In this document: positions 20,322 to 43,666 of the stretch, piece by piece | How positions within the stretch are numbered: position 1 is the stretch's first letter | Layout of the letters: each line of letters starts with the position of its first letter | NCBI GenBank assembly: GCA_023451265.1 | Contig: JAEYAG010000059.1 | Span: 1,189-65,188 of the forward strand | Origin: Actinomycetes bacterium | Lineage (GTDB): Bacteria; Actinomycetota; Actinomycetes; Actinomycetales; Microbacteriaceae | DNA: 64,000 nucleotides | Reading direction: 5' to 3' | Notes under the pieces: generated by a model | Databases searched by the model: none | Told to the model about the DNA's origin: nothing | What the model saw: only the letters and a program-made list of their open reading frames with translations | Made by a program: the position numbers and the translations under genes

Positions 20322-20327
20322 CGACTC

Positions 20328-24021: not shown

Positions 24022-24603
24022 TCAGCCCTCGATGCGGTCGACGAGCTCGAGGCCGCGCCGCGCCCACTCGATCTCAACGCGGGCGCGCGCGGCGAGCCCC
24101 TCGTAGGTGAACCGCTTGTAGGCGATCGTGCGCTCGTGCTCGGCGGGCGGCGTCACCGAGAGGCGGCGGGACAGCATCGCGCTGCTCATCTGCTCGATGG
24201 CGTCGAGCTGCCCCTGGAACTGCGCGAGCTCGTCCTCCCACACGGCGATGTGCCGCTGCAGGAAGTCCCGCGCGGCTTCGGGCGTCGTGGTCGCCAGATA
24301 GGCGGCGCGCAGATGGGCGGGGTCGCGCACGCGCTGATAGTCCAGCGGCGAGGCCATCCACTCCTCGAACGCCGCGTTCCCGGCCGGCGTCACGTGGTAC
24401 ACGCGCCGGGTGCCGCGCTCGCCGCGCGCCTGCTCCTCGCCCTCGATGAGCCCGAGCGAGGCCATCTTGCGCAGCTCGGGGTAGATCTGCGAGTCCGGGG
24501 CGTGCCAGACGTGCCCGACCGACTGGGCGAACTGCTTTTGCAGGTCGTACCCCGACAGGGGGCCGACACGCAGGATCGCCAGCAGCGCGTAGCGCAGACT
24601 CAT
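24022..24603 (-). CDS. PadR family transcriptional regulator (VanR-like by context)
   Basis: ORF 24022..24603. MSLRYALLAILRVGPLSGYDLQKQF...IYPELRKMASLGLIEGE. GGAAGGAG SD. It is the last gene of the ligM operon. Confidence 0.85.
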   Translation of the reverse strand: MSLRYALLAILRVGPLSGYDLQKQFAQSVGHVWHAPDSQIYPELRKMASLGLIEGEEQARGERGTRRVYHVTPAGNAAFEEWMASPLDYQRVRDPAHLRAAYLATTTPEAARDFLQRHIAVWEDELAQFQGQLDAIEQMSSAMLSRRLSVTPPAEHERTIAYKRFTYEGLAARARVEIEWARRGLELVDRIEG

Positions 24604-24680
24604 GGGGGCTCCTTCCGCCAGACGAGCGTAGCGAGTTCGAGGGGCCCGGGCTGACCCGGACCCCTCGATGCGGCGAAGGA

Positions 24681-27005
<2,325 letters not shown>

Positions 27006-27009
<4 letters not shown>

Positions 27010-27881
27010 GAGTTCGCGGCGACGTAGTCGCGCGCCCACTCAGAGGTGGCCAGCAGGCCGCCGAACGTGTAGAAGTGCAGGCTCACCTCGCCCGACGACG
27101 GCTCCTGCGCCAGCAGTTGCGACAGGTCGCCCACGAAGCGGTCGGGGCCGGCGGTGCCCATGAGGTTGGTCAGGCTGAAGCCGTACTTCTTCACGATCAT
27201 CGCGTTGGCGCCCACGCCGAACCGGCGCGCGAAGTTGATGAGGCGCTTGATGCCGGCCGGCCCGGGCGTGCCGATGCGGATCGGGGTGTGGATGCCGCGG
27301 TCGCGCACGGCGGTGATCCAGGCGAGCACCGGGTCGGTGTCGAAGGCGAACTGGGTGAGGATGACGGCATCCAGCCCCTGGTCGGCCAGCGCGGCGGACT
27401 TGTCCTCGAGGTGGCGCCACAGCACGTCGTCGGCGATGTCGGGGTGGCCCTCGGGGTAACCGGCGATCGACACCTCCTTCACGCCGTACTGCTGCAGGAT
27501 GCCGGAACGGATCACGCTCAGCGAGTCGGGGTAGGGCCCTTCGGGCTCGGCCGGGTCGCCGCCGACGACGAACACGTGGTCGGTCGCGCCGACCGCCTGC
27601 AGGGCGGCGAGGAACTCCTCGAGCTGCGTCTGCGACCCGAGGCGCCGGGCGGAGATGTGCGGCACCGGGGTGAAGCCGAGATCCTTGACGGCCTTGGCCG
27701 CCGCCACCCGCATCTCGAGGTCCTCGTTGCCGAGGAAGGTGACGTTGATCTTCGTGCCGGCCGGGATGACCGGTGCGGCCTCTTCGAGCCCCGGCACATC
27801 CTTGCCGGTCATCTCGATAGAGAAGCCGTCGACGAGGCGGAGAGCGGCCGCCCGATCGGGGGCGGGGGAGATGGATGCCAC
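27006..27881 (-). CDS. metF: 5,10-methylenetetrahydrofolate reductase family protein
   Basis: ORF 27006..27881 (GTG, AAGGGA upstream). MetF-family blocks VFVVGGDP, IAGYPEGHP, and TQFAFD followed by PIRIGTPG. Confidence 0.85.
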
Positions 27882-27926
27882 AGCGAGTCCCTTTCGGAGC
27901 GCTTCGTCGCGCCCTCCCTCGTCACG

Positions 27927-27946
27927 TTACCTATGGAGATAGGTAA
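27927..27946. promoter_or_regulatory. 20-bp AT-rich perfect inverted repeat TTACCTAT-GGAG-ATAGGTAA upstream of metF-purU-ligM-padR
   Basis: Read directly. It is the only strongly AT-rich element in the 224-bp gap between the VOC and metF genes. Confidence 0.55.
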
Positions 27947-28105
27947 TCGCAAGAGGGAAATTCTTCCCGGCCCCCGAGCGCACCATCCCCGCGAGGGAAC
28001 AACGGGCGGACGAGGGTGCGGGTGATCCCCGTTCTCTCGGCGTCCCATTGTTCTCTCGCCGATCGGCGGATGCCGGGGGCGCGGGCCCGCGCGGCGGCGC
28101 GGGGG

Positions 28106-28459
28106 TCAGCGCGGGAGCGGCGAGTAGAAGACCAGGCCGTTGCCCTGGCTGTCGTACGCGACGGCGCGGCGTTCGTGCGCGTCGTTGTAGGGGCCGCGCG
28201 CCAGTCCGCCGCCGTTGTCGTCGACGGCCTGGACCGCGGCATCCACATCGTCGGTCTTGATGCCCACCACGACCTGGCCCGGGATCGGGTGGTCGATCGC
28301 GGTGGCCAGGGCGATGGTCACCGTGCCGCCGTCGAGCGCGGCGAAGTGGTTGCTGTCGCGGAACTTCAGCGGGAAGCCGAGGGTCTCGGTGTAGAACCGG
28401 ATCGACTCGTCGAGGTCTTCGGTCGACAGCACGATCATCTTCACCTGGTGGCTGGTCAT
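28106..28459 (-). CDS. VOC (glyoxalase/bleomycin-resistance/dioxygenase) family protein
   Basis: ORF 28106..28459. IVLSTEDLDESIRFYTETLGFPLKF beta-alpha-beta-beta-beta module. GAGGAG SD. Confidence 0.8.
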   Translation of the reverse strand: MTSHQVKMIVLSTEDLDESIRFYTETLGFPLKFRDSNHFAALDGGTVTIALATAIDHPIPGQVVVGIKTDDVDAAVQAVDDNGGGLARGPYNDAHERRAVAYDSQGNGLVFYSPLPR

Positions 28460-28607: not shown

Positions 28608-29822
28608 TCAGGGCGTGCGCTCGCGCGAAGCGGCGAACAGGGCCGCGCCGATGCCGATCGCGGCGAACGCTGTCATCACGACGGTCGCGGGCACCGCGGT
28701 GGCCGTTCCCGCCAGGCCGCCGAGCGGTGACGCGCCCGCGCCGAAGACGAACTGCGCGAAGCCCAGCAGGGCCGATCCCGCGCCGGCCGTCCCGGCGGCG
28801 TGGCCGACCGCGAGGGCCGACGCGCTCGACATCACCGCCCCGCAGCCGGCCGCGAACAGGCAGGCCAGCAGCAGATACGACCAAAGGACGAGGACATCCG
28901 ACAGTGCCAGCACCGCGAGGGCTGCCGCCGCGGACACCACGAGCAGCTGCGCGGCGCGCAGCGTGGGCGGTGCTCCCCACCGCGCCGCGATGCGACCGTT
29001 GAGCCAGGCGCCGGTCATCACCGCCACCGACGTCGCCGAGAAGGTCAGGCCGTAGGTGAGGGCGGTGTGGCCCAGCGCATCCTGCACGATGAACGACGAC
29101 GAACTGATGTAGGTCATCAGGGCGGCGTACCCCGCACCGTACGCGAGCACGTACCCCAGGTACACGGGGCGGCGCAGCAGCCGACCGATGTTGCCGGAGA
29201 GCGCCGCCAGGGTGAAGGGATGCCGCTGCTCGCGCGGCAGGCTCTCCGGGACGGCGAGGATCGCGACCGCCAGCATCGCCGCGCCGATCACCGCCAGTCC
29301 GCCCAGCGTCGCCCGCCAACCGCCCCATTGGGCCAACAGCGCACCCAGGGGGCTGGCCACCGCCGGTCCCAGGGCGATCATCACGAACAGGGTGCTGAAG
29401 GCACGGACCGCGCGCTCATGCGACACGAGGTCGGCGATGACGGCCCGGGACAGCACCGCGCCGGCCGCCCCGGCGAAGCCCTGCACCGCCCGGATGGCGA
29501 TGAGCGCCGACAGGGTCGGGCTGAAGGCGGCCCCCAGCGCGCACGCCGAGAACAGGGCGAGCGCCGCGATCAGCGTGCGGCGTCGCCCCAGCGCGTCGGA
29601 GATCGACCCGATGATCAGCTGCCCGAACGCCGAGCCGATGAGGAACGCGGTGAGCGTCAGCTGCACCGCCGAGGCCGCCGCGCCCAGGTCGTCGGCCATC
29701 GACGGGAAGGCCGGCAGGTACATGTCGGTCGACAGCGACGCTGTCATCGACACGAACCCGAGCGCGTAGATCCGGCCGCCGCCCAGCGGGTCGCGGCGGC
29801 CGGATGCGGCGGCGTCGGTCAC
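28608..29822 (-). CDS. MFS transporter, DHA1 Bcr/CflA-like
   Basis: ORF 28608..29822. The GTG overlaps the ABC ATPase stop (GTGA). Twelve helices and an ISDALGRRR motif-A-like loop. Confidence 0.85.
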   Translation of the reverse strand: MTDAAASGRRDPLGGGRIYALGFVSMTASLSTDMYLPAFPSMADDLGAAASAVQLTLTAFLIGSAFGQLIIGSISDALGRRRTLIAALALFSACALGAAFSPTLSALIAIRAVQGFAGAAGAVLSRAVIADLVSHERAVRAFSTLFVMIALGPAVASPLGALLAQWGGWRATLGGLAVIGAAMLAVAILAVPESLPREQRHPFTLAALSGNIGRLLRRPVYLGYVLAYGAGYAALMTYISSSSFIVQDALGHTALTYGLTFSATSVAVMTGAWLNGRIAARWGAPPTLRAAQLLVVSAAAALAVLALSDVLVLWSYLLLACLFAAGCGAVMSSASALAVGHAAGTAGAGSALLGFAQFVFGAGASPLGGLAGTATAVPATVVMTAFAAIGIGAALFAASRERTP

Positions 29823-30676
29823 GAGGCGGTCACGGCGTCGGGCCGGAACCCCTTCTTCGCGAGCTGGATCTGCTCGTACACGTGGTGGCGCAGCTCGGTG
29901 AACCGCGGCAGCGACCGCGTCTCGAGCTGGTCCCGCTCGGCCGGCAGATCGATCTCAAGGTCCTCCTGCACCACCGTCGGCGAGCTCGACAGGATGATGA
30001 CCCGCTCGCCGAGGTACACCGACTCGTCGATGTCGTGGGTGACGAACAGCACCGACAGGCCCAGCGACTTGCGCACGCTGCGCACCAGGTCCTCGAGGTC
30101 GGCGCGGGTCTGCGCGTCGACGGCCGCGAACGGCTCATCCATCAACAGCACCTCGGGCTGGTAGGCGATGGCACGGGCGATCGCCACCCGCTGCTGCATG
30201 CCGCCCGACAGCTGCCAGGGGTACGACTGCGGCACGTGGTCCAGGCCCACGTTGACGAGCGCCTCTTCGACGAGCTCCTTGCGGCGGGCCTTCGGCACGC
30301 CCGCGTTGCGCAACGGCAGTTCGACGTTGTCGGCCACGCGCAGCCACGGGAACAGCGACCGGCCATACTCCTGGAAGACGACGGCCATCTTCTTCGGCGG
30401 CCCGGTCACGGGCTTGCCGTCGAGCACGACCTCGCCGCTGGTGGGTTCGAGCAGCCCCGCGATGCACTTGAGCAGGGTGGTCTTGCCCGACCCGGACGGG
30501 CCGACCAGGCAGGTGAGCTCGTTCTTGCCGAGGTCGAAGGTCAGGTCGCGGACGGCTTCGATGTCGCCCCCGTCGGTGTGGTAGATCTTCTGCAGCCCGC
30601 GCACCGACAGCAGCGTGTCCTCGGCGGCGAGGGTGCGGCCGCGGCCGACGAGCGGCGGGGTGTTCTCAAGAGGCAT
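29819..30676 (-). CDS. ABC transporter ATP-binding protein (NitT/TauT nitrate/sulfonate/bicarbonate-type)
   Basis: ORF 29819..30676. Walker A GPSGSGKTT, signature LSGGMQQRVAIARA, Walker B LLMDEPF. Confidence 0.9.
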   Translation of the reverse strand: MPLENTPPLVGRGRTLAAEDTLLSVRGLQKIYHTDGGDIEAVRDLTFDLGKNELTCLVGPSGSGKTTLLKCIAGLLEPTSGEVVLDGKPVTGPPKKMAVVFQEYGRSLFPWLRVADNVELPLRNAGVPKARRKELVEEALVNVGLDHVPQSYPWQLSGGMQQRVAIARAIAYQPEVLLMDEPFAAVDAQTRADLEDLVRSVRKSLGLSVLFVTHDIDESVYLGERVIILSSSPTVVQEDLEIDLPAERDQLETRSLPRFTELRHHVYEQIQLAKKGFRPDAVTAS

Positions 30677-31442
30677 TCTCGATGTCCTTCAGTCCGTAGT
30701 ACCAGCGGAGGATGCGGCGCTCGACGTACTTGAACAGCACCGAGACGGCGATGCCGATCAGTCCCAGCATCAGGATCCCCGACCACATCTCGGGGATCGC
30801 GAAGCGCCGCTGGAATTGGATGATCGAGAAGCCCAGCCCCGAGGAGGAGAAGAACATCTCGCTGATCACCATGAGGATGATGCCGATGGGCAGCGCCTGG
30901 CGCACCCCGGCGAGGATCTGCGGGGCCGCCGACGGCAGCACCTGATAGCGCACCCGGGAGAACCCGTGGATGCCGTATGACCGGCTCGTCTCGGTCTGCA
31001 CCGAGTCGGTGGCGCGCACGCCTTCGATCGTGTTCAGCAGCACCGGCCAGATCGCACCGGCGGCGATGACGACGATCTTCATCGTGTCGTCGACGCCGAT
31101 CAGCAGCCCGAAGATCGGGATGAGCACCGGCGGCGGGATCGCACGGAAGAACTCGAAGATCGGCTCGGTGAAGGCGCGCAGGTCGCGGTTCAGGCCGATC
31201 AGCAGGCCCAGCACGGCGCCGAGGACGATCGCGACACCGGTGCCGACGGCGAACCGGCCGAGCGAGGGCAGCACATCGCTGAAGAAGCGCTCGCCGACCC
31301 AGGTCTCGAAGAACTCGGCGACCAGTTCCGCGGGCTTGGGCACGAAGATGCTCGTCGCGTTCAGGCTCAGCAGCCACCAGAGGGCGATGAGGATGATCGG
31401 GAGCCCGACCGCGTAGGCCGCGGCGATGAGGAACTTCTTCAT
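30666..31442 (-). CDS. ABC transporter permease (NitT/TauT-type)
   Basis: ORF 30666..31733 trimmed to ATG 31442 (MKKFLIAAAY...), which overlaps the upstream permease stop (ATGA). Six-helix BPD-type permease. Confidence 0.85.
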   Translation of the reverse strand: MKKFLIAAAYAVGLPIILIALWWLLSLNATSIFVPKPAELVAEFFETWVGERFFSDVLPSLGRFAVGTGVAIVLGAVLGLLIGLNRDLRAFTEPIFEFFRAIPPPVLIPIFGLLIGVDDTMKIVVIAAGAIWPVLLNTIEGVRATDSVQTETSRSYGIHGFSRVRYQVLPSAAPQILAGVRQALPIGIILMVISEMFFSSSGLGFSIIQFQRRFAIPEMWSGILMLGLIGIAVSVLFKYVERRILRWYYGLKDIENAS

Positions 31443-32268
31443 ACGACCGCCTCCCCGCGCACCGACTGGTGCCAGCTCAGCAGCCGGCGCTCCAGCAGTC
31501 GCACGCCCACGTTGATGACCAGGCCCAGCAGGCCGGTGGCCAGGACCAGGGCGTACGTCGACTCGTACAGTCCGACGTTGCGCGACAGGGCGATCTGGTT
31601 GCCGAGCCCCGGCGTGCCGATGACCAGCTCTGCGGTCACCGCCAGGATCAGCGCGACGGCCGCCGCCAGGCGCAGCCCCGTGAGCAGGTACGGCAGCATC
31701 GTGGGGAACACGACGTCGCGCACGCGCTGCCACCAGGTGAAGCCGAAGCTGCGGGCGGTGTTCATGGCGACGGTGTCGACGTCGGCGACGCCGTAGAGCA
31801 CCTGGATGAAGATCTGCCAGAACGCGCCGTAGGTGATGATCAGCAGGCTCTGCTGCAGCGGGACGGCGAACAGCAGCACCGCCAGCGGGATGAGACCGAC
31901 CGAGGGGATCGGCCGCAGGAACTCGACGGTCGTGCGCGTCGCCTTCTGCAGGAACGACGACAGGCCGATGAGCACCCCCAGCGGCAGCGCCAGTACGAGC
32001 GCCAGTCCGATGCCGAGCGCCCAGCTGGTCACGGTCTGCCCGACCGCCTCCCAGAAGCCGGTGAGCGTCGCGTTCTGCGCGAGGGTGACCAGAACGGTGG
32101 ATGCCGGGGGCAGATACGTCGGGTCGACGATGCCGGTGCGGGAGGCGATCTCCCAGACGGCGAGGAACGTGAGCACCCCCGCCGCACCCAGCAGCATCCG
32201 GCGTGGCCGGAACCGGCGGCGCCGGCGCCGGGCGTTCGCGACGGCGACCGTGCGTGTGATGGTGTCGG

Positions 32269-32272
<4 letters not shown>
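31439..32272 (-). CDS. ABC transporter permease (NitT/TauT-type)
   Basis: ORF 31439..32491 trimmed to ATG 32272 (MTDTITRTVAV...), which overlaps the CoA-ligase stop (ATGA). Confidence 0.85.
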
Positions 32273-33819
<1,547 letters not shown>

Positions 33820-33899
33820 TCGGTGTGCCTCGTTGCTGTAGCGGGATTGCAGGACAGGGGCGGGTGCCGCCGGGCGGCGCCCGCCCCCGTCCGAGCGGA

Positions 33900-34901
33900 T
33901 TACGGGATGATCACCGTGTCGAGGTCGGGCTCGGCGTCCATGAAGTCGTACTTCAGGGCGAGGTCGCTCAGGTCGATCAGCACCTGCGGGTCGAGGTCGG
34001 CCGACAGCCGCTCGAGGCGCAGGTCCATGGCGGCGGCCTCGGGGAGTGGGGTGAGCTCGGCGATCGCGGCGGCCAGGCCCTCGCGGTCGTCGTTGGCGGC
34101 ATCGAGGGTCTCGCCCAGGGCGGCACGCCACTTCTCGAGCGTGTCCGCGTCTTCGGCGACAGCGCCCGAGGTGAACGTGACCATCGTGGGCAGGCCCGGG
34201 ATGGTGTTCTGGTTCGGGTAGCCGAGCACCGAGTACTTCTCCGGGTCGGCGATGGCTGCTGACATGAACGGCTCCGGGATCCACACAGCGTCGACGTTGT
34301 TGCCGTCGAGCTGTGCCAGCGCGTCGGCGAAGCCGATCTCGATGAAGTTCACCGCGTCGGGGTCGCCGCCGTCCTTGGCGACGGACTCCTTGATGGTGAG
34401 GTCGCCCTGCGTGTTGACGGCGTTGACCGACACGCGCTTCCCCTCGAGGTCGGCCCAGCTGTCGATGCCGTCACCGGCGCGGGTGACGACGGCGTTGATG
34501 TCGTCGCCCTCGGCGAGCGAGAACGAGTAGCCGGTCGCGACGCGGACGTCGACACCCTGGCTGGAGGCGACCAGCACCGAGAGCGGGTTGCCGACGCCGA
34601 AGTCGAGCTGACCGGTCGAGACGGCCGGCAGCATGGCGGCACCGCCCTCCTGGATGGTCACCTCCACATCGAGGCCGTGCTTCTCGAAGATGCCCTCGTT
34701 GATGCCGTAGGTGACGGCGGCCGACGGCGCGATGGCCAGCAGGCCGACGTTGATCGAGGTGAGCTCGTCGGTCGTGCCGGGGTCGGTGTCGCCGGTGGGG
34801 TCCGGGTCGCCGCTGGGCGAACCGGACGTGCACGCGGAGAGCAGGAGCACACCGGCGGTGGCCAGGGCCGCCAGACCGGTGAAGCGGGTACGTCGTGACA
34901 T
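33900..34901 (-). CDS. ABC transporter substrate-binding lipoprotein (NMT1/SsuA/TauA-like)
   Basis: ORF 33900..35297 trimmed to ATG 34901 (AAGGAG SD). Lipobox LLLSAC followed by a low-complexity linker. Confidence 0.85.
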   Translation of the reverse strand: MSRRTRFTGLAALATAGVLLLSACTSGSPSGDPDPTGDTDPGTTDELTSINVGLLAIAPSAAVTYGINEGIFEKHGLDVEVTIQEGGAAMLPAVSTGQLDFGVGNPLSVLVASSQGVDVRVATGYSFSLAEGDDINAVVTRAGDGIDSWADLEGKRVSVNAVNTQGDLTIKESVAKDGGDPDAVNFIEIGFADALAQLDGNNVDAVWIPEPFMSAAIADPEKYSVLGYPNQNTIPGLPTMVTFTSGAVAEDADTLEKWRAALGETLDAANDDREGLAAAIAELTPLPEAAAMDLRLERLSADLDPQVLIDLSDLALKYDFMDAEPDLDTVIIP

Positions 34902-34969
34902 TTCAGTGACTCCTTTGTAACTGCGGGTGGTTGCTGTGCGATGTTCAGTTGTGGAGGGCCCGGCTCGAG

Positions 34970-35422
34970 TCAGGCGTAGAAGCGGTACAGGCCCCGTGCG
35001 ACCACGGCGGGCTTGGTGCCGCCGTCGATCTCGATGGTCTGGTCGACGGCGAACTGATAGCCCCCGGGCACCTCGGTGACCTCGGCGATGACGGCTCCGC
35101 CGCGCACGCGGTCGCCGACCTTGACCGGCGACACGAAGCGGACCTTGTCGAGGCCGTAGTTGACCTTGGTCGTCACGCCCTCGAGGTCGAACAGCTCCGA
35201 CCAGAACTTGACCGTCAGCGACAGCGACAGGAATCCGTGGGCGATCGGGCCGCCGAACGGGCCGTCCTTGGCGCGCTCGGGGTCGACGTGGATCCACTGG
35301 TGGTCGTCGGTGGCGTCGGCGAACAGGTTCACGCGGTCCTGCGTCACCTCGGTCCAGTCGCTGAACCCGAGGTCGGTGCCGGCGAGGGTGGCGGCGTCGG
35401 CGTAGGCGGCGGTGGTGGTCAT
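34970..35422 (-). CDS. MaoC-like (R)-specific enoyl-CoA hydratase (PhdE/CouM-like by context)
   Basis: ORF 34970..35422. Hot-dog hydratase motif region ADATDDHQWIHVDPERAK...GPIAHG. Confidence 0.85.
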   Translation of the reverse strand: MTTTAAYADAATLAGTDLGFSDWTEVTQDRVNLFADATDDHQWIHVDPERAKDGPFGGPIAHGFLSLSLTVKFWSELFDLEGVTTKVNYGLDKVRFVSPVKVGDRVRGGAVIAEVTEVPGGYQFAVDQTIEIDGGTKPAVVARGLYRFYA

Positions 35423-35438
35423 AGGTGGGCCTTTCGTG

Positions 35439-36626
35439 TCAGACGAATGCGGCCACGCCGGTCAGGGCGCGTCCGACGATGAGGGAGTTGATCTCGTGGG
35501 TGCCTTCGTAGGAGTAGACGGCTTCGGCGTCGGCGAAGAACCGCGCGACGTCGTGCTCGAGGAGGATGCCGTTGCCGCCGAGCACTTCGCGGCCCAGCGC
35601 CACCGTCTCGCGGGCCAGCCGCGCCGTGGTCATCTTCGCCAGCGCGGAGTTCGTGTCGCTGAAGTCCCCGGCATCCTGCCGCTGCGACAGCTGCACCGCC
35701 ATGCCCAGCGACGCGACGGCGTTGCCGAGCATGCGGGCCAGCTTCTCCTGCACGAGCTGGAAGCCGCCGACAGGGCGCCCGAACTGCTCGCGGGTGCGGA
35801 CGTACCGCACAGCGGCCTCGAGGGCACCGGCCTGCAGGCCGGCTGCGATCCACGCGACATCCGAGCGCATCGTGCGCAGGATCCGCGACACGTCCCGCCA
35901 TGAGTCCACGTTCTGCAGGCGCCGGGCCTCGGGCACGCGGACATCCTCGAGCGTGATGACGGCGTTCTGCATGGGGCGCAGTGACACCTTGCCGGTGATG
36001 GTCTCCAGGTGGATGCCGGTGGCGACGCGGTCGACGAGGAAGAGCTTGATCTCGCCGTCGGCGGTGGCGCGGGCGAAGACGGCGAGCACGTCGGCGGTGT
36101 CGGCGCCGCCGATCCAGCGTTTGCGACCCGACAGCACCCAGTCGTCCCCGTCGCGGCGGGCGGTCGTGGCCAGGCCGCCAGCGATGTCGGAGCCGTGGTC
36201 GGGCTCGGTGAGGGCGAACACCCCGGTCAGCGCGAACGTGCGCACGAGCGGGTCGAGTTCGGCGACCTGCGTCGCGGACCCGCCCAGCCGCACCGCGGCG
36301 CGGAACAGGCCGGACTGTGCGTTGTAGAGCGTCGCGACCGACACGTCGGCGCGGGCGAGCACATAGTTGCGGAACCCGTTGAACATGGACGAGTCGGCCT
36401 CTTCGGCGGGAACGCCCTCGGGCGCCATGAGATCCAGCGGCACGAGCGCCTCGAGTACGGCGGCGGGCATCGTCGCCGTCTCCCAGGCGTCGCGCATGAG
36501 CGGAGCGATCTCGCGTTCGAGCGTGGCGGCCAGGCCGGCCAGGGCGGCGCGCGCGGTCTCGCTGAGGTGCGTCTGCGCGTACCCGTACGGGTCCAGGCCG
36601 ATCGCGTCGTCGCGGGCGAGGGTCAT
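35439..36626 (-). CDS. Acyl-CoA dehydrogenase (PhdD-like by context)
   Basis: ORF 35439..36896 trimmed to ATG 36626 (TGATG overlap with the amidohydrolase stop). LTEPDHGSD, REQFGRPVGGFQLVQEKLA, YEGTHEIN. Confidence 0.85.
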   Translation of the reverse strand: MTLARDDAIGLDPYGYAQTHLSETARAALAGLAATLEREIAPLMRDAWETATMPAAVLEALVPLDLMAPEGVPAEEADSSMFNGFRNYVLARADVSVATLYNAQSGLFRAAVRLGGSATQVAELDPLVRTFALTGVFALTEPDHGSDIAGGLATTARRDGDDWVLSGRKRWIGGADTADVLAVFARATADGEIKLFLVDRVATGIHLETITGKVSLRPMQNAVITLEDVRVPEARRLQNVDSWRDVSRILRTMRSDVAWIAAGLQAGALEAAVRYVRTREQFGRPVGGFQLVQEKLARMLGNAVASLGMAVQLSQRQDAGDFSDTNSALAKMTTARLARETVALGREVLGGNGILLEHDVARFFADAEAVYSYEGTHEINSLIVGRALTGVAAFV

Positions 36627-37516
36627 CACGTGCCTCCGAGGCGAAGGAGCCGGGCGGCGTTGTCCTTGAGGATGCCGGGGAGGACCTCGGGCTTGAACAG
36701 TTCGGCCGCCGCCGCATCGCGCTGCCAGCGGTCGGGCGTCAGCAGCGGGAAGTCCGAACCGAACAGCACGCGGCCCTTGAGGTAGGAGTTGGCGGCGCGC
36801 ACCAGCGACTCCGGGAAGTAATTCGGGCTCCAGCCCGACAGGTCGATCCAGGTGTTGTGCTTGTGTGTCGCGACCGACAGGGCTTCGTCCTGCCACGGCA
36901 CGGACGGGTGGGCCATGATGATCTGCAGGTCGGGGAAGTCGGCGGCGACCCCGTCCAGCAGCATGGGGTTCGACAGCGCCAGACGGAAGCCCCGCCCGCC
37001 AGGCATGCCGGCGCCGATCCCGGTCTGTCCGGTGTGGAACAGGGCGGTCACCCCGGCATCCTGCAGCGCGGCGTACAGCCCGTAGTGCTGCTCGTCGCTC
37101 GGGTCGAAGCCCTGCACGGTGGGGTGGAACTTGAACCCCCGCACGCCGTGGTCCTCGATGAGGCGCCGGGCGCGGTCGACGGCGTCGGTGCGGCGCGGGT
37201 CGACCGAGCCGAACGGGATCAGCACGTCGTTGTTACGGGCCGCGCCCTCGGCGATCTCCTCGTTCGACAGCGGCGGGTGGTCCAGTTGCGTCTGCGCGTC
37301 GACCGTGAACACGACGGCGGCCATCTTCCGCTCGCGGTAGTACGCGGCGACGCTGTCGAGGTCGGGCCGGGGGCCCTCCGCCGAGAAGTACTTCGACGCG
37401 GCCTCGGACAGATCCGCCGGCAGCGACGAGCGGCCGTGCGCGTCGACCTCGATGTGCACGTGCACGTCGATCGCGGTGAGGGCGTCGAGGTCGATCGCGG
37501 GTTCGTAGCGGGTCAT
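36626..37516 (-). CDS. Amidohydrolase-2 superfamily metal hydrolase (PhdC/CouO-like 3-oxoacyl-CoA ketohydrolase by context)
   Basis: ORF 36626..37516. IDVHVHI (HxH) near the N-terminus, FHPTVQGF, and a FGSDFP metal-ligand Asp near the C-terminus. Confidence 0.8.
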   Translation of the reverse strand: MTRYEPAIDLDALTAIDVHVHIEVDAHGRSSLPADLSEAASKYFSAEGPRPDLDSVAAYYRERKMAAVVFTVDAQTQLDHPPLSNEEIAEGAARNNDVLIPFGSVDPRRTDAVDRARRLIEDHGVRGFKFHPTVQGFDPSDEQHYGLYAALQDAGVTALFHTGQTGIGAGMPGGRGFRLALSNPMLLDGVAADFPDLQIIMAHPSVPWQDEALSVATHKHNTWIDLSGWSPNYFPESLVRAANSYLKGRVLFGSDFPLLTPDRWQRDAAAAELFKPEVLPGILKDNAARLLRLGGT

Positions 37517-37556
37517 GGCTTCGGGTGCTCGGGTCTCCGGTCGGGGTGGGCGGTGG

Positions 37557-38474
37557 TCAGCGCTGGAGGTCTTCGGGCAGCGGCGGGAACGACTCGCCGA
37601 CCGACTGGAGGTGGCCGCCGATGACGTCGGCGCCGCGCTCGATCAGCGCGTCGTAGGTCCAGCCGCCCTCGCGGTACTCGGTCGTGGCGGCCTCCGGGTG
37701 CGACCACACCTGCAGGCGGTCGCCGCCGATGCCGATGGCCTGACCGGTGATCCCGGCCGCCTCGTCGGACGCGAGGTAGGCGATGAGTCCGGCGACATCG
37801 GCCGCGGTGCCGAAGCCCAGGTCGTGGCGGAAGAACGCGGGCATGGCCTCGCCCTTCGCGTCGGCCTCGACGGCGGCGGCGAAGAAGGGCACGGTCGCCG
37901 TCATCGCGGTGGCGGCCACGGGGATGACGGCGTTGGCGGTGATGCCGGCCTTCTTCAGCTCGAGGGCCCACGTGCGGACCATGCCGACGATGCCGGCCTT
38001 CGCGGCCGCGTAGTTGGTCTGGCCGAAGTTGCCGCGCTGGCCGGTCGGCGAGCCGATCGTGATGATGCGGCCGGCGATCTGGTTCTCGCGCATGTAGGTG
38101 GCGGCCGCGCGGACGGTGGTGAACGTGCCGCGCAGGTGCACGCCGATGACGGTGTCGAAGTCCTCGTCGCTCATCTTCCAGAGCACCGTGTCGCGCAGCA
38201 CGCCGGCGTTGGTGACGAGGATGTCGAGCCGCCCGAACGTGTCGACGGCGGTCTGGACGAGCGTGTCGGCGGTCTCGGTCGGGCCGACCGGGGCCACGAC
38301 GGCGACCGCGCGTCCGCCGGCGTCGGTGATGGATGCCACGGCGGCGGCCGCAGTGGCCTCGTCGACGTCGTTGACCACGACCGCCGCGCCCTGGCGGGCG
38401 AGCTCCTGGGCGTAGGCGAGACCGAGTCCGCGGCCCGATCCGGTGACGATGGCGACTTTGCCGTCAAGGCTCAT
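37557..38474 (-). CDS. SDR family 3-hydroxyacyl-CoA dehydrogenase-like oxidoreductase (PhdB/CouN-like by context)
   Basis: ORF 37557..38531 trimmed to ATG 38474 (GAAGGAG SD). VTGSGRGLGLAYA and NYAAAKAG (YxxxK). Confidence 0.85.
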   Translation of the reverse strand: MSLDGKVAIVTGSGRGLGLAYAQELARQGAAVVVNDVDEATAAAAVASITDAGGRAVAVVAPVGPTETADTLVQTAVDTFGRLDILVTNAGVLRDTVLWKMSDEDFDTVIGVHLRGTFTTVRAAATYMRENQIAGRIITIGSPTGQRGNFGQTNYAAAKAGIVGMVRTWALELKKAGITANAVIPVAATAMTATVPFFAAAVEADAKGEAMPAFFRHDLGFGTAADVAGLIAYLASDEAAGITGQAIGIGGDRLQVWSHPEAATTEYREGGWTYDALIERGADVIGGHLQSVGESFPPLPEDLQR

Positions 38475-38501
38475 GGGGTGCTCCTTCACACGTGATGCCC
38501 T

Positions 38502-38549
38502 CATTGAAGTGGACATAGTTGAAATTGTCAATGGTTTCTGAGCTCAATG
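38502..38549. promoter_or_regulatory. Three CATTGA/TCAATG half-sites in the AT-rich divergent promoter region of the phd-like operon and its MarR
   Basis: CATTGA at 38502-38507, TCAATG at 38528-38533 (inside ATTGTCAAT) and TCAATG at 38544-38549. Confidence 0.45.
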
Positions 38550-38557
38550 AACTGCTC

Positions 38558-38563
38558 TAGGAT
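38558..38563 (+). promoter_or_regulatory. -10-like TAGGAT, 7 nt before MarR ATG 38571
   Basis: TAGGAT GAGTGCC ATG. Confidence 0.5.
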
Positions 38564-38570
38564 GAGTGCC

Positions 38571-39062
38571 ATGTCGAAGACGACGCGAAGGCCTGCGCCG
38601 GTGCTCCCGGCGTCGGCGGACGACCGCCTCTGGCAGTCCTCCGTCGGCGGGGGCCTGAGCTTCGTGCTCGCGCGGGCCAACGCGCTGTCGCTGGCCGGCG
38701 TGCATGCGGCCCTGGCCGAGCATGGGCTGCGGGTGCGGCAGTACTCCGTGCTGGCGATCGCGGCCGGGGGCCTGCGCCCGTCGCAGCGCGAGCTGTCGGA
38801 CTTCCTGCGGCTGGACCCCAGTCAGATCGTCGCCGTCGTCGACCACCTCGAATCGCGCGACCTCGTGCGCCGCGAGCCCGACCCCACCGATCGCCGGGCC
38901 AAGGTCGTGGTGGCCACCGAGGCCGGCAAGGCGCTGTTCCGCCGCGCGCGGGCGGCGGCCGATCAGGCGGACGAGGAGTTCCTCGCCCGGCTCGACGCCG
39001 CCGAGGTCGCGGCCCTGGCCCCCGCCCTGCGCAAACTCGCCTGGGCCCCCGCCGTCGACTGA
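38571..39062 (+). CDS. MarR family transcriptional regulator (PhdR/CouR-like by context)
   Basis: ORF 38547..39062. Start placed at ATG 38571 because TAGGAT lies 7 nt upstream (leaderless pattern) and ATG 38547 sits inside an operator-like repeat; 38547 and 38562 remain possible. Winged-helix block SQRELSDFLRLDPSQIVAVVDHLESRDLVRREPDPTDRR. Confidence 0.8.
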   Translation: MSKTTRRPAPVLPASADDRLWQSSVGGGLSFVLARANALSLAGVHAALAEHGLRVRQYSVLAIAAGGLRPSQRELSDFLRLDPSQIVAVVDHLESRDLVRREPDPTDRRAKVVVATEAGKALFRRARAAADQADEEFLARLDAAEVAALAPALRKLAWAPAVD

Positions 39063-39274: not shown

Positions 39275-40519
39275 TCAGCGGCGTTCGAGTACGAAGCGCG
39301 GGCGTCCGGCGAAGAAGCCCGTGACGGTGAGCAGCACCAGTACGACCAGCAGCAGCGCGAGCGACGCGGTCCAGCCGCCGGTGAGTGAGTGCAGGGAGCC
39401 GAAGGCGATGGGTCCGAGCGCGGCGATCAGATAGCCCACCGACTGCGACATGCCCGACAGGGCGCTGGACGCGTCGTGGTCGCGGGCGCGCTGCGCCATC
39501 AGGGTCAGTGACATGCCGAGGGTGGACCCCGAGGACAGGCCGAGCAGCACGGCCCAGAGCGTGATGGCCGCAGGAGCCGCCATGAGGCCGATCGTGCCGA
39601 CGATCGCCAGCGCCGGGATGAGCGCGGGGATGTAGCGCTCGACGCGGCCGCGCAGCAGGAACGGCAGCGTCGTCGCCCCCGCCAGCGACATGAGCTGGTA
39701 GACCATGACGTCGATGCCGGCGACGACCTCCGAGCGTCCGGTCGACATCGAGATCGCCGCGAGCCACGTCACGAGCATGTAGAACATCGCCGACTGGAAG
39801 CCCATGTAGGCGGCGACCAGCCACGCCACCGGGTCTGTCCAGATGCCGGTGCGACCGCGGTGCGTCGACGAACGGACGTGCACATGGCGTGGGCCGCGGT
39901 GGGTCAGCCACCACGCCAGGATCGCGAGAGGCAGCAGGGCGGCGCCGGTGGCCAGCAGCGCCACCCGCCAGCCGGCCGGGTCGCCGCCCACGTCGAGGTG
40001 CGAGATCGGCACGACGACGCCCGACGAGATCGCGCCGAAGCCGCCGAGCAGGGCTGTGTACATCGCGGTGACCAGGGCCACCCGGCCGGGGAACTCGCGC
40101 TTGACCACGGCGGGCATGAGCACGTTGATAACCGCGATCCCGAGGCCGATGACGGCTGTCCCGAGCCACAGCCAGACCACCTGGCCGAGGCCGTCGCCCA
40201 CGCCGGGCAGCGACCGGACGACTGTGCCCGCGAGCAGGACGAGGAGCGAGCCCAGCAGCACGCGCGGTTGCCCGAACCGCCGGCTCAGCGTGTGCGCGAG
40301 GGGTGAGAACCGCGCCCACGCCACCAGCGGCACGGCCGCGAGCACGCCCAGCGCGTCGATCGACATCCCTGTGTCCGCGCCGATCTGGTCCAGCAGCGGC
40401 CCGAGCCCGGTGATGGCCGGCCGCATGTTCGCCGCGACCAGGCACACCGCGACCACCAGCATCGCGACCGCGGCGCCGCGCGCCGGCGGCGGAGGTGTCG
40501 TCCGCGACGGTGAGGCCAT
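39275..40519 (-). CDS. MFS transporter (CynX/cyanate-permease-like subfamily)
   Basis: ORF 39275..40723 trimmed to ATG 40519 (MASPSRTT...). Twelve helices. The ORF part upstream of 40519 runs through a 76-bp tandem repeat and is not periodic in frame. Confidence 0.8.
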   Translation of the reverse strand: MASPSRTTPPPPARGAAVAMLVVAVCLVAANMRPAITGLGPLLDQIGADTGMSIDALGVLAAVPLVAWARFSPLAHTLSRRFGQPRVLLGSLLVLLAGTVVRSLPGVGDGLGQVVWLWLGTAVIGLGIAVINVLMPAVVKREFPGRVALVTAMYTALLGGFGAISSGVVVPISHLDVGGDPAGWRVALLATGAALLPLAILAWWLTHRGPRHVHVRSSTHRGRTGIWTDPVAWLVAAYMGFQSAMFYMLVTWLAAISMSTGRSEVVAGIDVMVYQLMSLAGATTLPFLLRGRVERYIPALIPALAIVGTIGLMAAPAAITLWAVLLGLSSGSTLGMSLTLMAQRARDHDASSALSGMSQSVGYLIAALGPIAFGSLHSLTGGWTASLALLLVVLVLLTVTGFFAGRPRFVLERR

Positions 40520-40544
40520 GAGTACGGACGATATCCCAGCCGCG

Positions 40545-40800
40545 CACAAAGCCCGCATCGCCGCAGCCCCACTCACCGGGTGTGTGACCCGGAACTCACA
40601 TGGACTGCGAGGGGGATGCCAGCTCCGCGGCGATGCTGAGCGTCCAACCCTCCGGGTGTGTGCCTCGGAACTCACATGGACTGCGAGGGGGATGCCGGCC
40701 CCGCGGCGATGCTGAGCGTCCACTCCCCCCGGGCGTGTGACCCGGAACTCACGCAGCCTGCGACGGGGATGCCGGTCCGCCGCGGATCAGCGCCGTCAGG
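40545..40800. repeat. 76-77-bp tandem repeat, about 3.3 copies, non-coding
   Basis: Units start at 40578, 40654 and 40731 (GGGTGTGTGACCCGGAACTCACATGGACTGCGAGGGGGATGCC...GCGATGCTGAGCGTCC...), with a partial unit before 40578. Confidence 0.85.
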
Positions 40801-41980
40801 CGAGGCCCTCCAGCGGCCACCCGGTGTACGCCTCGGCGAGATAGCGGCGGCCGGCCTCCGACTCGACGACCGAGCGCAGCTCACCCAGCTGGCGCTGCCG
40901 GTCGAAGTCCGACGCGTCGGGCGCGACGTGCAGCATGTTCGTCATCCACCACGAGAAGTGCTGCGCCTTCCAGATGCGGCGCGACGCCGTCTCCGGGAAC
41001 GCCTCGATCAGGCGCGCGTCGCCGTCGAGCAGCAGGGCGCGCAGCGCCTGTTCGAGCACGACGACGTCGGCGACGGCCAGGTTCATGCCCTTCGCTCCGG
41101 TCGGCGGCACCGTGTGGGCGGCATCGCCGATGAGCGCCGCACGACCGTGCAGCAGCTCGTGGGCGACGAAGCTGCGGAAACGCAACACGTCGCGCTGGAA
41201 GATCGGCCCCTCCTTGAGCGTCGTGCCCGGCACGCGGGACTGCAGCTCGTGCCACAGCTGCTCCTCGCTCAGCGCGTCCGGATCCGCCTCCGGGTCGCAC
41301 TGGAAGTACATGCGCTGCACCGTCGCACTGCGCTGGCTGATCAGCGCGAAGCCGTGGGGGGAGTTGCTGTAGATGAGCTCGTGCGCGCTCGGCGGCGCCT
41401 CGGTGAGGATGCCGAACCACGCGAACGGGTACTCGCGGAAGAACCCGCCGGTGCGCGATCCCGTCACCGCCTCGCGCACCACGCTGTGGGACCCGTCGGC
41501 ACCCACCACGAACTCGGCCTCGATCACGACCTCATCGCCGTCGGGGCCGGTCGCGATGACACGTGGCAGATCCGTCTCGACCCCTTCGACGCGCACCGCC
41601 GTCACGCCGAAGCGGAGGTCCTGGCCCTTGGCCAGCCGCACGGCGATGAGATCCTTCAACACCTCGTGCTGCGGGTAGAGGTACACGCCGCGGCCGACGA
41701 GGTCGGCGAAGTCGATGCGATGGCCGGCGCCGGCGAACCGCAACTCGATACCGTCGTGGCGCTGGCCGACCGTGCGCACACGCGAGGACGCCCCGGACTG
41801 GTCGAGGATCTCGACGGTGCCCTGCTCGAGGATGCCGGCGCGGATCGTCGTCTCGATCTGTTCGCGCATGCGCTGGTCGATGACGACGGAGTCGATGCCG
41901 GCGATGCCCAGCAGATGCGCCAGCAGCAGGCCGGCCGGGCCGGCGCCGACGATCGCGACACGGGTGCGGGTGGTGGTCAT
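40796..41980 (-). CDS. pobA: 4-hydroxybenzoate 3-monooxygenase
   Basis: ORF 40796..41980. VAIVGAGPAGLLLAHLL, GADGSHS, and a C-terminal block like PobA. GAAGGAG SD. Confidence 0.9.
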   Translation of the reverse strand: MTTTRTRVAIVGAGPAGLLLAHLLGIAGIDSVVIDQRMREQIETTIRAGILEQGTVEILDQSGASSRVRTVGQRHDGIELRFAGAGHRIDFADLVGRGVYLYPQHEVLKDLIAVRLAKGQDLRFGVTAVRVEGVETDLPRVIATGPDGDEVVIEAEFVVGADGSHSVVREAVTGSRTGGFFREYPFAWFGILTEAPPSAHELIYSNSPHGFALISQRSATVQRMYFQCDPEADPDALSEEQLWHELQSRVPGTTLKEGPIFQRDVLRFRSFVAHELLHGRAALIGDAAHTVPPTGAKGMNLAVADVVVLEQALRALLLDGDARLIEAFPETASRRIWKAQHFSWWMTNMLHVAPDASDFDRQRQLGELRSVVESEAGRRYLAEAYTGWPLEGLA

Positions 41981-42102: not shown

Positions 42103-42855
42103 TCAGCGGCGCGCGGTGCGCAATGCGGCTTCGACGCCTCCCGCAGCCTCCCGCAGTGCCGCGATCGCCGCAGCCGGATCCGCGTCCCGCGGCAGCACGA
42201 CCGACAGGGCCGCCACCACCTCGCCGGCGTCGCGCACCGGCACAGCCACCCCCGTCGACACGGTCTCGATCGACCCCGGGGCGACGGTGACGCCGCTGCG
42301 CCGGATGTCGGTGAGCACGCGACGGAGCCGGCCGGCATCCGTCACCGTCTCGGGGGAGACCGCACGCAGCGGCCCGGCCAGGATCCGCTCGCGGAGCGCT
42401 GCCGAGGCGAAGGCGAGCAGCACAAGCCCCGAAGACGACGCGTGCAGGGGGAGCCGTCCGGCGATGCGGGTGATGTTGGCGCCCGCCTCGGGGTGCGACA
42501 GCCGCTCGAGGAACAGAGCCTCATCCTGCTCGAGCACCGCGAGCTGGGTGTGCTCGCGCACGACGGCCTGCACCTGCTCCATGAACGGCAGGGCAGCCTG
42601 CCGCAGCCGCAGCGCCGTCGAGCCGCGCAGGGCCAGCTCCCACAGACGCATCCCCAGATGCACCCGACGGTCCTGGTCGCGTTCGAGCAGCCCGGCGGCG
42701 ACCAGTTCGTCGACGATGCGGTGCGCCGTCGACGACGGCAGTCCGGCGTGCCGTCCGATCTCGGAAGCGGTCTGCATCGTCCGGTCGGCGGTGAACGTCT
42801 CGAGCACCCGCACGATGCGGTCGGTCATCGAGTCGCCGGAGGGCGAGTTGGCCAT
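42103..42855 (-). CDS. IclR family transcriptional regulator (PobR-like by position)
   Basis: ORF 42103..42855. N-terminal HTH ASEIGRHAGLPSSTAHRIVDELV plus a C-terminal IclR effector domain. Confidence 0.85.
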   Translation of the reverse strand: MANSPSGDSMTDRIVRVLETFTADRTMQTASEIGRHAGLPSSTAHRIVDELVAAGLLERDQDRRVHLGMRLWELALRGSTALRLRQAALPFMEQVQAVVREHTQLAVLEQDEALFLERLSHPEAGANITRIAGRLPLHASSSGLVLLAFASAALRERILAGPLRAVSPETVTDAGRLRRVLTDIRRSGVTVAPGSIETVSTGVAVPVRDAGEVVAALSVVLPRDADPAAAIAALREAAGGVEAALRTARR

Positions 42856-42904: not shown

Positions 42905-43666
42905 ATGATGGCCGACGGTGAGGGTGTGCTCGAACGCGTGCTGCGCGTGCTGGGCTGTTTCTCCGAAGACGAGCCGGCGGTCGCCGCCGCCGCTCTCGCC
43001 CACCGCACGGGCCTGGCCTCGTCGACGCTGCACCGGCTGCTGGCAACCCTCGTCGCCGAAGGACTGCTCACGCGCGGCCCCGGACACACCTATGCGGTCG
43101 GCTCGCGGCTGTGGGAGCTCGGGGAGCTGTCCCCCCTGTCGCTGCGACTGCGTGAGACCGCACTGCCGCACATGGTGCGCCTGTACGAAGCCACCGGCGA
43201 GAACGTCCACCTCGCCGTGCTCGACGGCCCCACCCCCGAGACCTCCAGCGCCCTGTTCGTGGGGCGCCTCACCGGTCGGCAGTCCATTCCGACCCTCAGC
43301 CGCATGGGCGGGCGCAACCCCCTGCATGTCACAGGCGTCGGCAAGGCGCTGCTGGCCGAGCGCGACGAAGACTGGCTCGCCCGGTACTTCCGCGCGCCGC
43401 TCGAGCGCGAGACCGTGCACTCGATCACCTCCGAGACCCGCCTGCGCGCCGAACTGGCCCGCGCCCGCACGCTCGGCTACGCGACCACGCGCGAGGAGAT
43501 GACCCTGGGCAACGTGTCGGTCGCCGCGGCGGTGGGGCGCGTCGACGGCCTGCCGCCAGCGGCCATCGGCCTGGTCGTCCACCTCGAGCGCGCCGACGAG
43601 CGGCGCCTGGCCCCCCTGGTCGTGCAGGCCGCCAAGGAACTGCATCACGAGCTGCGGACCGCCTGA
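42905..43666 (+). CDS. IclR family transcriptional regulator
   Basis: ORF 42059..43666 trimmed to ATG 42905 (or 42908), just after AGGAGG. HTH LAHRTGLASSTLHRLLATLV. Confidence 0.85.
   Translation: MMADGEGVLERVLRVLGCFSEDEPAVAAAALAHRTGLASSTLHRLLATLVAEGLLTRGPGHTYAVGSRLWELGELSPLSLRLRETALPHMVRLYEATGENVHLAVLDGPTPETSSALFVGRLTGRQSIPTLSRMGGRNPLHVTGVGKALLAERDEDWLARYFRAPLERETVHSITSETRLRAELARARTLGYATTREEMTLGNVSVAAAVGRVDGLPPAAIGLVVHLERADERRLAPLVVQAAKELHHELRTA

Follow-up and report, generated by a model that had tools for sequence, protein, structure and literature searches.

We analysed a 64-kb stretch of DNA (64,000 nucleotides of contig JAEYAG010000059.1, assembly GCA_023451265.1; hereafter the window) and identified on its minus strand a ten-gene operon, which we read as a system of Microbacterium (M. 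lacticum group) for the import of hydroxycinnamic acids and for their CoA-dependent beta-oxidative deacetylation. A CouR-type repressor would control the operon and would be released from its operator by hydroxycinnamoyl-CoA. From sequence and gene neighbourhood, we put the probability of this reading at roughly 0.7. The solute-binding protein (SBP) and the amidohydrolase of the operon share 100% identity with a protein of Microbacterium lacticum and 99% identity with one of Microbacterium sp. MC2, respectively.

The operon spans positions 28608–38474 and encodes, in order of transcription, a short-chain dehydrogenase/reductase (SDR), an amidohydrolase, an acyl-CoA dehydrogenase (ACAD), a MaoC-type hydratase, a lipoprotein SBP, an AMP-forming ligase, two permeases and an ATPase of an ATP-binding cassette (ABC) transporter, and a transporter of the major facilitator superfamily (MFS; Table 1). 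The first-pass annotation of this DNA had described ten co-directional genes in this order, and our check of their domains with Pfam and NCBIfam bears this out. The five overlaps it had listed are also all present: a 1-nt overlap (TGATG) at the amidohydrolase/ACAD junction, ATGA both at the ligase stop/permease 1 start and between permeases 1 and 2, 11 nt between permease 2 and the ATPase, and GTGA at the ATPase stop/MFS start. The other junctions are gaps of +40 (SDR/amidohydrolase), +16 (ACAD/MaoC), +68 (MaoC/SBP) and +80 nt (SBP/ligase). With the exception of the MFS gene, the start of each gene is preceded by a purine-rich stretch. The 11-nt overlap of permease 2 and the ATPase is found in Myceligenerans and Sinomonas as well. 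Since this overlap recurs, the ATPase–MFS junction is tight in 12 loci and the neighbourhood is conserved across genera (see below), the layout is not due to chance. The co-directional run extends past 28608 to 24022 through genes for a glyoxalase-fold protein, a MetF-like protein, PurU, LigM and a PadR regulator; the 148-nt gap between the MFS gene and the glyoxalase-fold gene contains no recognisable terminator.

Table 1. Features of the window; functions are predicted from domain content and homology
Feature	Position	Strand	Remarks
Tannase/feruloyl-esterase-family protein, secreted	17955-20234	+	PF07519, 434 bits
MetE-like 5-methyl-tetrahydrofolate:homocysteine methyltransferase gene	20319-21437	+	NF005085, 370 bits
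Unit of glyoxalase-fold, MetF-like, PurU, LigM and PadR genes	24022-28459	-	Continues the run after the MFS gene
LigM-type tetrahydrofolate-dependent vanillate O-demethylase (vanillate/3-O-methylgallate)	24681-26159	-	NF047885, 872 bits (cut-off 580)
PurU	26119-27039	-	TIGR00655, 351 bits (cut-off 286)
MetF-like gene	27006-27881	-	MTHFR Pfam match
MFS transporter	28608-29822	-	Bcr/CflA (DHA1) family; TIGR00710, 248.6 bits
ABC ATPase	29819-30676	-	TauB/NtrCD-like; ABC_tran, 120 bits
ABC permease 2	30666-31442	-	32% identical to permease 1
ABC permease 1	31439-32272	-	TauC/SsuC/NtrB-like; BPD_transp_1
AMP-ligase	32269-33819	-	Hydroxycinnamate (feruloyl/p-coumaroyl)-CoA ligase; AMP-binding, 312 bits
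Stem-loop	33852-33892	-	GC-rich, 18-bp stem, no U tail; directly 3' of the SBP stop codon
Lipoprotein SBP	33900-34901	-	NMT1/SsuA/ThiY fold; PF09084, 83 bits
MaoC	34970-35422	-	CouM/PhdE-type enoyl-CoA hydratase; MaoC_dehydratas, 95 bits
ACAD	35439-36626	-	Acyl-CoA_dh middle and C-terminal domains
Amidohydrolase (Amidohydro_2)	36626-37516	-	CouO/PhdC-type beta-ketoacyl-CoA ketohydrolase; PF04909, 168 bits
SDR	37557-38474	-	First gene of the operon; 3-hydroxyacyl-CoA dehydrogenase, CouN/PhdB-type; adh_short, 158 bits
CouR-box-like operator	38518-38532		GTTGAAATTGTCAAT on the plus strand; within the 72-nt MarR/SDR spacer
MarR-family repressor, CouR-like	38547-39062	+	Divergent from the operon; Pfam MarR/MarR_2
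CynX-type MFS gene, after pobA	39275-40723	-	CynX/NimT, 287 bits, below the model cut-off
PobA (4-hydroxybenzoate 3-monooxygenase)	40796-41980	-	NF006091, 494 bits (cut-off 351)
IclR regulator gene	42103-42855	-	Faces away from the next
IclR regulator gene	~42929-43666	+	Faces away from the previous
Protocatechuate branch: pcaH, pcaG, pcaB, pcaD, pcaC, then pcaIJ, pcaF	43732-53345		
Phenol-2-monooxygenase-like flavoprotein	47865-50288		NF006144, 1035 bits; inserted within the pca genes with another IclR gene

As a Rhodococcus reference we used L085, a cou locus that encodes a CouR with 99% identity to that of Rhodococcus jostii RHA1; the locus was reached via the RHA1 CouR sequence taken from a Protein Data Bank (PDB) alignment and then the CouR protein cluster. 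In this locus, couR is next to an SDR–amidohydrolase–MaoC run, and MFS, ligase and ACAD genes follow further along. The functions of its CouN, CouM, CouH and CouT were assigned from gene order, Pfam domains and the CouR paper. The window SDR shares 66% identity over 297 aa with CouN, the SDR encoded beside couR, and the amidohydrolase is 61% identical over 293 aligned residues to the CouO orthologue, both proteins being 296 aa long. MaoC is 55% identical to the CouM orthologue over 144 aa, and the ligase shares 41% identity with CouL across 504 aa. These values uphold the earlier proposal that the catabolic genes are of the Cou type. The best PDB matches of the ligase are the ‘Feruloyl-CoA synthetase’ structures 8WEU/8WEV (E 1e-155, 53% identity over the full length). 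No NCBIfam model matched the amidohydrolase (0 hits); some databases label its Microbacterium orthologues ‘4-hydroxyphenyl-beta-ketoacyl-CoA hydrolase’. The window thus holds a CouO-type ketohydrolase, a CouN-type SDR, a CouM-type MaoC protein, a CouL/PhdA-type ligase and a CouR-type MarR protein with its operator, while the MHS-type uptake permease (CouT/PhdT) is missing from the cluster. Because the permease is an accessory feature, enzymatic membership in the Cou/Phd pathway stands without it and, as judged by homology, the catabolic genes are genuinely of the Cou/Phd type. According to the first-pass annotation, the order SDR–amidohydrolase–ACAD–MaoC is presumably also that of phdBCDE, which would put the ACAD gene in the place of phdD.

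The regulator encoded divergently from the operon finds RHA1 CouR (5CYV/3FM5) as its best PDB matches with an E-value of 2e-21, the next match being at 2.6e-9, and is 39% identical to Rhodococcus CouR. In RHA1 CouR, Arg36 and Arg38 contact both DNA and CoA phosphates (PMC4737184). The LRVR motif that contains both arginines is kept in the window protein as LRVRQY. No CouR model in NCBIfam matched the protein.

The spacer between the MarR and SDR genes holds a palindrome, which reads GTTGAAATTGTCAAT on the plus strand and ATTGACAATTTCAAC on the minus strand and has one mismatch to the RHA1 CouR box, cATTGA-N5-TCAATg. In RHA1, this box overlaps the -35 box (PMC4737184). The operator is the sole site within one mismatch of the CouR box in the 64-kb window, and a search for further boxes ahead of the SBP and ligase genes found none within two mismatches. 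Outer half-sites lie on either side of the operator, TCATTGA at 38501–38507 and TCAATGA at 38544–38550. The longest MarR reading frame starts with the ATG at 38547 and overlaps the outer half-site; the true start is probably the ATG at 38562 or 38571, and the spacer would then probably measure ∼90 nt. The core TTGA-N7-TCAA is found in most of the 58 divergent MarR–SDR spacers of related loci, exactly in 18, with one mismatch in 20 and with two mismatches in 20 (a few of them degenerate). In RHA1, the CouR-type repressor responds to hydroxycinnamoyl-CoA and not to benzoates (PMC4737184).

The SBP has a lipobox (LLSAC) whose cysteine, Cys24, is invariant in 14 orthologues. In Pfam it matches NMT1-type models only (NMT1, NMT1_2 and Phosphonate-bd), with 83 bits against a cut-off of 20.5 for PF09084. 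It falls below the cut-offs of the sulfonate and taurine models (82 versus 163.5 bits for TIGR01728, SsuA_fam; 34.5 versus 304 bits for TIGR01729) and, by these scores, is not an orthologue of sulfonate or taurine SBPs. Its AlphaFold2 (AF2) model has a predicted local distance difference test score (pLDDT) of 85. The top Foldseek matches of this model are ThiY (3IX1), SsuA (3KSX/2X26) and TauA (6SSY), all with a probability of 1.0 and with TM-scores of 0.67–0.73 when normalised to the query and 0.74–0.82 when normalised to the target; the pyrroloquinoline quinone (PQQ)-binding protein PqqT appears further down among the fold matches. At the sequence level, the relation to any solved structure is only faint. 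The closest NCBIfam models of the permeases are TauC, SaoP, SsuC and NtrB, all below their equivalog cut-offs, and that of the ATPase is the taurine ATPase (216 bits versus a cut-off of 357). Pfam, NCBIfam and fold thus agree with the earlier assignment of the transporter to the NitT/TauT (NMT1) class, but since the permease and ATPase matches are below equivalog cut-offs, membership holds at the family level only. We therefore place the ABC system in the TauT family but regard it as orthologous to no characterised member, and we propose the SBP as its hydroxycinnamate receptor.

We scanned one genome per species for relatives of the SBP and found 401 stretches that encode one. The counts below refer to the best 80 species, on whose loci the window proteins were mapped. 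All of these are Micrococcales, apart from loosely labelled metagenome-assembled genomes (MAGs), and include Microbacterium, Leucobacter, Arthrobacter, Nesterenkonia, Paeniglutamicibacter, Cryobacterium, Citricoccus, Sinomonas and other genera. In 59 of the 80 loci, cou genes are found no more than 10 kb from the SBP orthologue; a CouR-like MarR gene is present in 60, and both permeases and the ATPase are present in 49. The SBP gene is situated exactly between the MaoC and ligase genes in 40 loci, and 40 loci have the ACAD gene flanked by those for the amidohydrolase and MaoC. The full window order from SDR through amidohydrolase, ACAD, MaoC, SBP, ligase and the two permeases to the ATPase is found nine times, in three genera and several MAGs. 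In most other Microbacterium genomes, the ligase-to-SDR genes point in one direction and a MarR–SBP–permease–permease–ATPase–MFS run points in the opposite one, and the linkage of SBP and cou genes has therefore survived rearrangement. A tblastn search with Rhodococcus CouT gave no match in the window and matches in five of the 80 loci. We read this as a non-orthologous replacement of the CouT/PhdT permease by the ABC system across the Micrococcales, as far as gene content can indicate it.

Almost half of the loci (39/80) carry one or two extra SBP paralogues with 30–36% identity. In L004, L027, L030, L034, L043, L049, L065, L078 and others, such NMT1-type paralogues (two or three SBP genes, 30–36% identical to the orthologue) stand in tandem between the MaoC and ligase genes, which suggests that a single translocator is supplied by SBPs of differing ligand specificity. 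In Nesterenkonia lutea (L004), vanAB comes after the cluster. Some Arthrobacter species (L057, L059, L063, L070, L075–L077 and L081) have a reduced cluster, with the MarR gene next to an SDR–MaoC–SBP–ligase run that contains neither the amidohydrolase nor the ACAD gene; in these species, the last step, thioester cleavage, must depend on genes outside the cluster or proceed in another way. A tblastn search of plasmids with the SBP returned no R. jostii record among the matches listed. Plasmid pTC1 of Paenarthrobacter aurescens TC1 (L087, 261064–279909) encodes a 33%-identical SBP paralogue, adjoined by genes for both subunits (alpha and beta) of a ring-hydroxylating dioxygenase, together with those for a reductase, a PdxA-like dehydrogenase, ABC components and a regulator of the IclR type. 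We take this cluster to resemble a terephthalate/phthalate-type cluster, which would be another link of this SBP branch to aromatic acids.

The cou genes of R. jostii RHA1 (couR divergent from couNOM, with couT, couL and couH; PMC4737184) encode the same enzymes, and both systems have a divergent MarR gene and an ATTGA-N5-TCAAT-type operator. In RHA1 the genes form four transcription units, whereas the window has one co-directional run, in which the ACAD gene lies between the amidohydrolase and MaoC genes and belongs to a subfamily other than that of CouH. Uptake in RHA1 is through the MHS-type MFS permease CouT, whereas the window encodes a TauT-class ABC system and a Bcr/CflA MFS protein but no CouT homologue. 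The phd genes of Corynebacterium glutamicum (phdT, phdA, phdR and phdBCDE) can be likened to those of the window by role, namely ligase, hydratase, 3-hydroxyacyl-CoA dehydrogenase, 3-oxoacyl-CoA ketohydrolase and MarR repressor. The enzyme roles in C. glutamicum have been described, with cg0344–cg0347 deleted as one block (PMC10576375, PMC13434420). PhdT is an MHS-family permease, unlike the importer of the window, where the ligase gene lies in the same run and is parted from the MaoC gene by the SBP gene.

SBP-dependent uptake of hydroxycinnamates has a precedent in Rhodopseudomonas palustris, in which CouPSTU (ABC) and TarPQM (TRAP) are high-affinity importers of coumarate, ferulate and caffeate (PMC3610893). 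As in the window, this uptake is encoded with catabolic genes, but host and physiology differ, the R. palustris pathway being anaerobic and photoheterotrophic, and the window SBP matches NMT1-type models only. CouP, we assume, belongs to the Leu/Ile/Val-type class of SBPs, unlike the window SBP. The TauT family (TC 3.A.1.17) is itself listed as an importer of aromatics, with phthalate OphFGH of Burkholderia and aromatic-sulfonate SsuABC of Pseudomonas putida (PMC3223731). Compared by description, these systems and that of the window share the ABC family, the expected SBP fold and an aromatic acid as substrate. They differ in that OphFGH and SsuABC take benzene-dicarboxylate or sulfonates rather than the phenylpropenoate proposed here, and in that the window has two distinct permease genes (32% identical) and a Gram-positive lipoprotein SBP. 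Actinobacterial feruloyl-CoA synthetases of the 8WEU/8WEV kind usually act with an Ech hydratase/aldolase in the non-oxidative route to vanillin. The window ligase, at 53% identity to this enzyme, is instead paired with oxidative MaoC, SDR and amidohydrolase proteins.

The first-pass annotation had stated that this SBP class is unassigned to aromatic acids. This is too strong, because the TauT family already includes OphFGH as well as importers of aromatic sulfonates; the novelty lies in assigning hydroxycinnamates to it, and our literature search on this transporter class with hydroxycinnamates found no paper linking the SBP clade or the arrangement to them. The catabolic chemistry and its regulation are already known (PMC4737184, PMC13434420). 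Hydroxycinnamates are major lignocellulose-derived aromatics, and their uptake limits engineered strains for ‘biological funnelling’. The known dedicated importers are the MHS-type CouT/PhdT and the CouPSTU and TarPQM systems of R. palustris. If our reading is true, a conserved, CouR-controlled TauT-class ABC importer would be a third, probably high-affinity, solution to uptake and would offer a portable set of SBP and translocator for engineering. It would also correct widespread annotations, as orthologues of the SBP are named ‘thiamine biosynthesis protein’, ‘sulfonate ABC transporter’ and ‘sulfonate-binding protein’ in databases.

In the mechanism that we propose, the lipoprotein SBP would capture free ferulate or p-coumarate, possibly freed by the secreted tannase/feruloyl-esterase-family protein encoded nearby, and deliver it to a TauT-class translocator of two permeases and one ATPase. 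The Fcs/CouL-type ligase would then form the CoA thioester, which would also detach the MarR protein from its palindromic operator in the MarR/SDR spacer. The CouM-type MaoC protein, the CouN-type SDR and the CouO-type ketohydrolase would convert the thioester to acetyl-CoA and 4-hydroxybenzoate or vanillate, and PobA and LigM would turn these products into protocatechuate for the adjacent pca genes. We infer that the ACAD serves as an entry for dihydro (saturated) phenylpropanoates, which it would admit to the same route. In the Micrococcales, the ABC system would take the place held by the MHS-type CouT/PhdT in Rhodococcus and Corynebacterium. Gene content, homology, the operator and synteny are direct observations; the SBP ligand, the inducer, the roles of the ACAD and of the hairpin behind the SBP gene, and the role and direction of the MFS protein are predictions.

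Several observations weigh against this reading. The SBP gene has no cou gene within 10 kb in 21 of the 80 loci, and in eight of these 21 (including L011, L013, L020, L038, L053, L054 and L073) the SBP gene stands beside LigM/MetF genes, the identity of LigM being lower in some; vanillate-type ligands are therefore possible for part of the family. The Sinomonas loci are without catabolic neighbours and, together with the LigM-adjacent SBPs, allow for some family members having benzoate-type ligands. The SBP is at most 20% identical to any solved SBP, and none of those binds a hydroxycinnamate. All NCBIfam matches of the transporter subunits are below curated cut-offs. The ACAD is only ∼31% identical to Rhodococcus CouH, is not its orthologue and thus comes from a different lineage. 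Finally, a consensus scan found no sigma-70-like promoter or canonical terminator, its terminator-like sites being on the wrong strand only, although such a scan is uninformative for an actinobacterium with 71% G+C, the value of the window.

The enzymes might be Cou-type while the ABC system imports ring acids or methoxylated benzoates (vanillate, syringate and 4-hydroxybenzoate), with hydroxycinnamates entering by diffusion or through the MFS protein. This would account for SBP orthologues that stand beside LigM/MetF/PurU/PadR genes without a cou gene nearby (e.g., L011, L013, L038, L053, L054 and L073) and for the LigM cluster directly downstream of the operon in the window. TauT-family systems for benzene-dicarboxylates also exist (OphFGH), and the 33%-identical pTC1 paralogue lies beside genes read as a terephthalate-type dioxygenase. 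The commonest neighbours of the SBP gene, however, are MaoC and ligase (40/80), under a repressor of the type that in RHA1 answers to hydroxycinnamoyl-CoA and not to benzoates; pairs of SBP and ligase genes persist in L044, L066 and L080 where the other cou genes are gone, and many Micrococcaceae have two or three SBP paralogues, so that a benzoate-specific role could be held by a paralogue. We therefore consider import of benzoates by this SBP unlikely. It is quite improbable that the module mainly serves other aryl-alkenoic or aryl-alkanoic acids, such as cinnamate, phenylpropionate or piperic-acid-like compounds, in place of p-hydroxycinnamates. The presence of an ACAD would fit such substrates, and the ligase and SBP specificities assumed here are predictions, but the flanking PobA, LigM and protocatechuate branch are an exact fit for the products of p-coumarate and ferulate, a feruloyl-CoA synthetase of solved structure shares 53% identity with the ligase and a tannase/feruloyl-esterase-family gene is nearby. 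The linkage to cou genes, which outlasts several rearrangements across at least eight genera, speaks against an unrelated importer of sulfonates, nitrate or thiamine precursors that lies inside the operon by accident, as do start codons that overlap the ligase and permease stops, the lack of sulfur or thiamine genes nearby and an SBP score below the SsuA subfamily cut-off. The database names of orthologues (‘thiamine biosynthesis protein’ and ‘sulfonate ABC transporter’) and the nearest structures, ThiY, SsuA and TauA, point the other way, but we regard an accidental insertion as very improbable, and a sulfonate or thiamine-precursor importer was rejected on synteny and on the failed subfamily cut-off.

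The MFS protein scores above the TIGR00710 (Bcr/CflA) cut-off of 200.9 bits, with a match that covers model positions 7–379 of 385, and its best PDB match is EmrD. Its GTG start shares nucleotides with the ATPase stop (GTGA) and has no Shine–Dalgarno sequence upstream, which fits termination–reinitiation. Both parts of the earlier claim, a Bcr/CflA-type protein and coupling to the ATPase gene, are thus confirmed. The MFS gene is confined to Microbacterium and Leucobacter (Microbacteriaceae) and is absent from the Micrococcaceae loci. In all 12 of the Microbacterium and Leucobacter loci that have it, it begins -20 to +4 nt from the ATPase stop. As it is always beside the ATPase gene, whatever the arrangement of the catabolic genes, it belongs with the transporter and not with the enzymes. 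An orthologue of CouT/PhdT was ruled out, since the protein has no similarity to CouT. NCBIfam models related to the family mostly have efflux names, but some have importer names (PunC and FslD), and the direction of transport is therefore not readable from family membership. We lean, at somewhat less than even odds, towards an overflow exporter; a second importer seems a weaker candidate, and an unrelated role is rather unlikely. The safety-valve exporter suggested in the first-pass annotation is a weaker part of its proposal. More speculatively, the ABC importer and the Bcr/CflA protein of the Microbacteriaceae might be a fixed-ratio import/export pair that bounds cytoplasmic levels of toxic, membrane-active acids or products while the CoA-dependent pathway runs. 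The SBP clade would also be a hydroxycinnamate-specific branch of TauT, often with two or three paralogous SBPs per translocator, and the main route of phenylpropanoid uptake in the Micrococcales; we hold this extended picture to be doubtful.

The stem-loop that follows the SBP gene has a minimum free energy of -47.5 kcal/mol and a z-score of -2.85. Hairpins are present at the SBP stop in nearly all loci in which the SBP gene precedes the ligase gene or a second SBP gene (L005, L026, L041, L047, L055–L058, L060, L062 and others), their position being kept while their sequences are unrelated. This suggests a conserved device at the RNA level, which might stabilise the upstream segment or act as an attenuator or partial terminator and so set how much SBP is made relative to the membrane components.

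The operon is flanked by further genes for aromatic acid degradation (Table 1). From the LigM, PobA and pca context it follows that the next enzymes for 4-hydroxybenzoate (from p-coumarate) and vanillate (from ferulate) are encoded alongside. The pobA gene is followed by an MFS gene of the CynX/NimT type and not of the PcaK type, an unusual candidate for a 4-hydroxybenzoate transporter. The tannase-family protein carries a signal peptide (…ALAALLLSGMTATASA) and ends in an Ig-like domain; its gene lies 8 kb from the operon, and an aldehyde dehydrogenase gene accompanies it, also at ∼8 kb. The protein could release free hydroxycinnamates for the operon. The position of the MetE-like gene suggests that its product recycles the methyl-tetrahydrofolate made by LigM. 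This gene is broken by an in-frame TAG at 21153–21155 (…GYFLE*DCERAGGFEPL…), and it could be a pseudogene, contain a sequencing error or be read through. Several other genera also have the MetF–PurU–LigM–PadR unit next to SBP or ABC genes, and a second copy of PurU is encoded in the window at 54227–55294.

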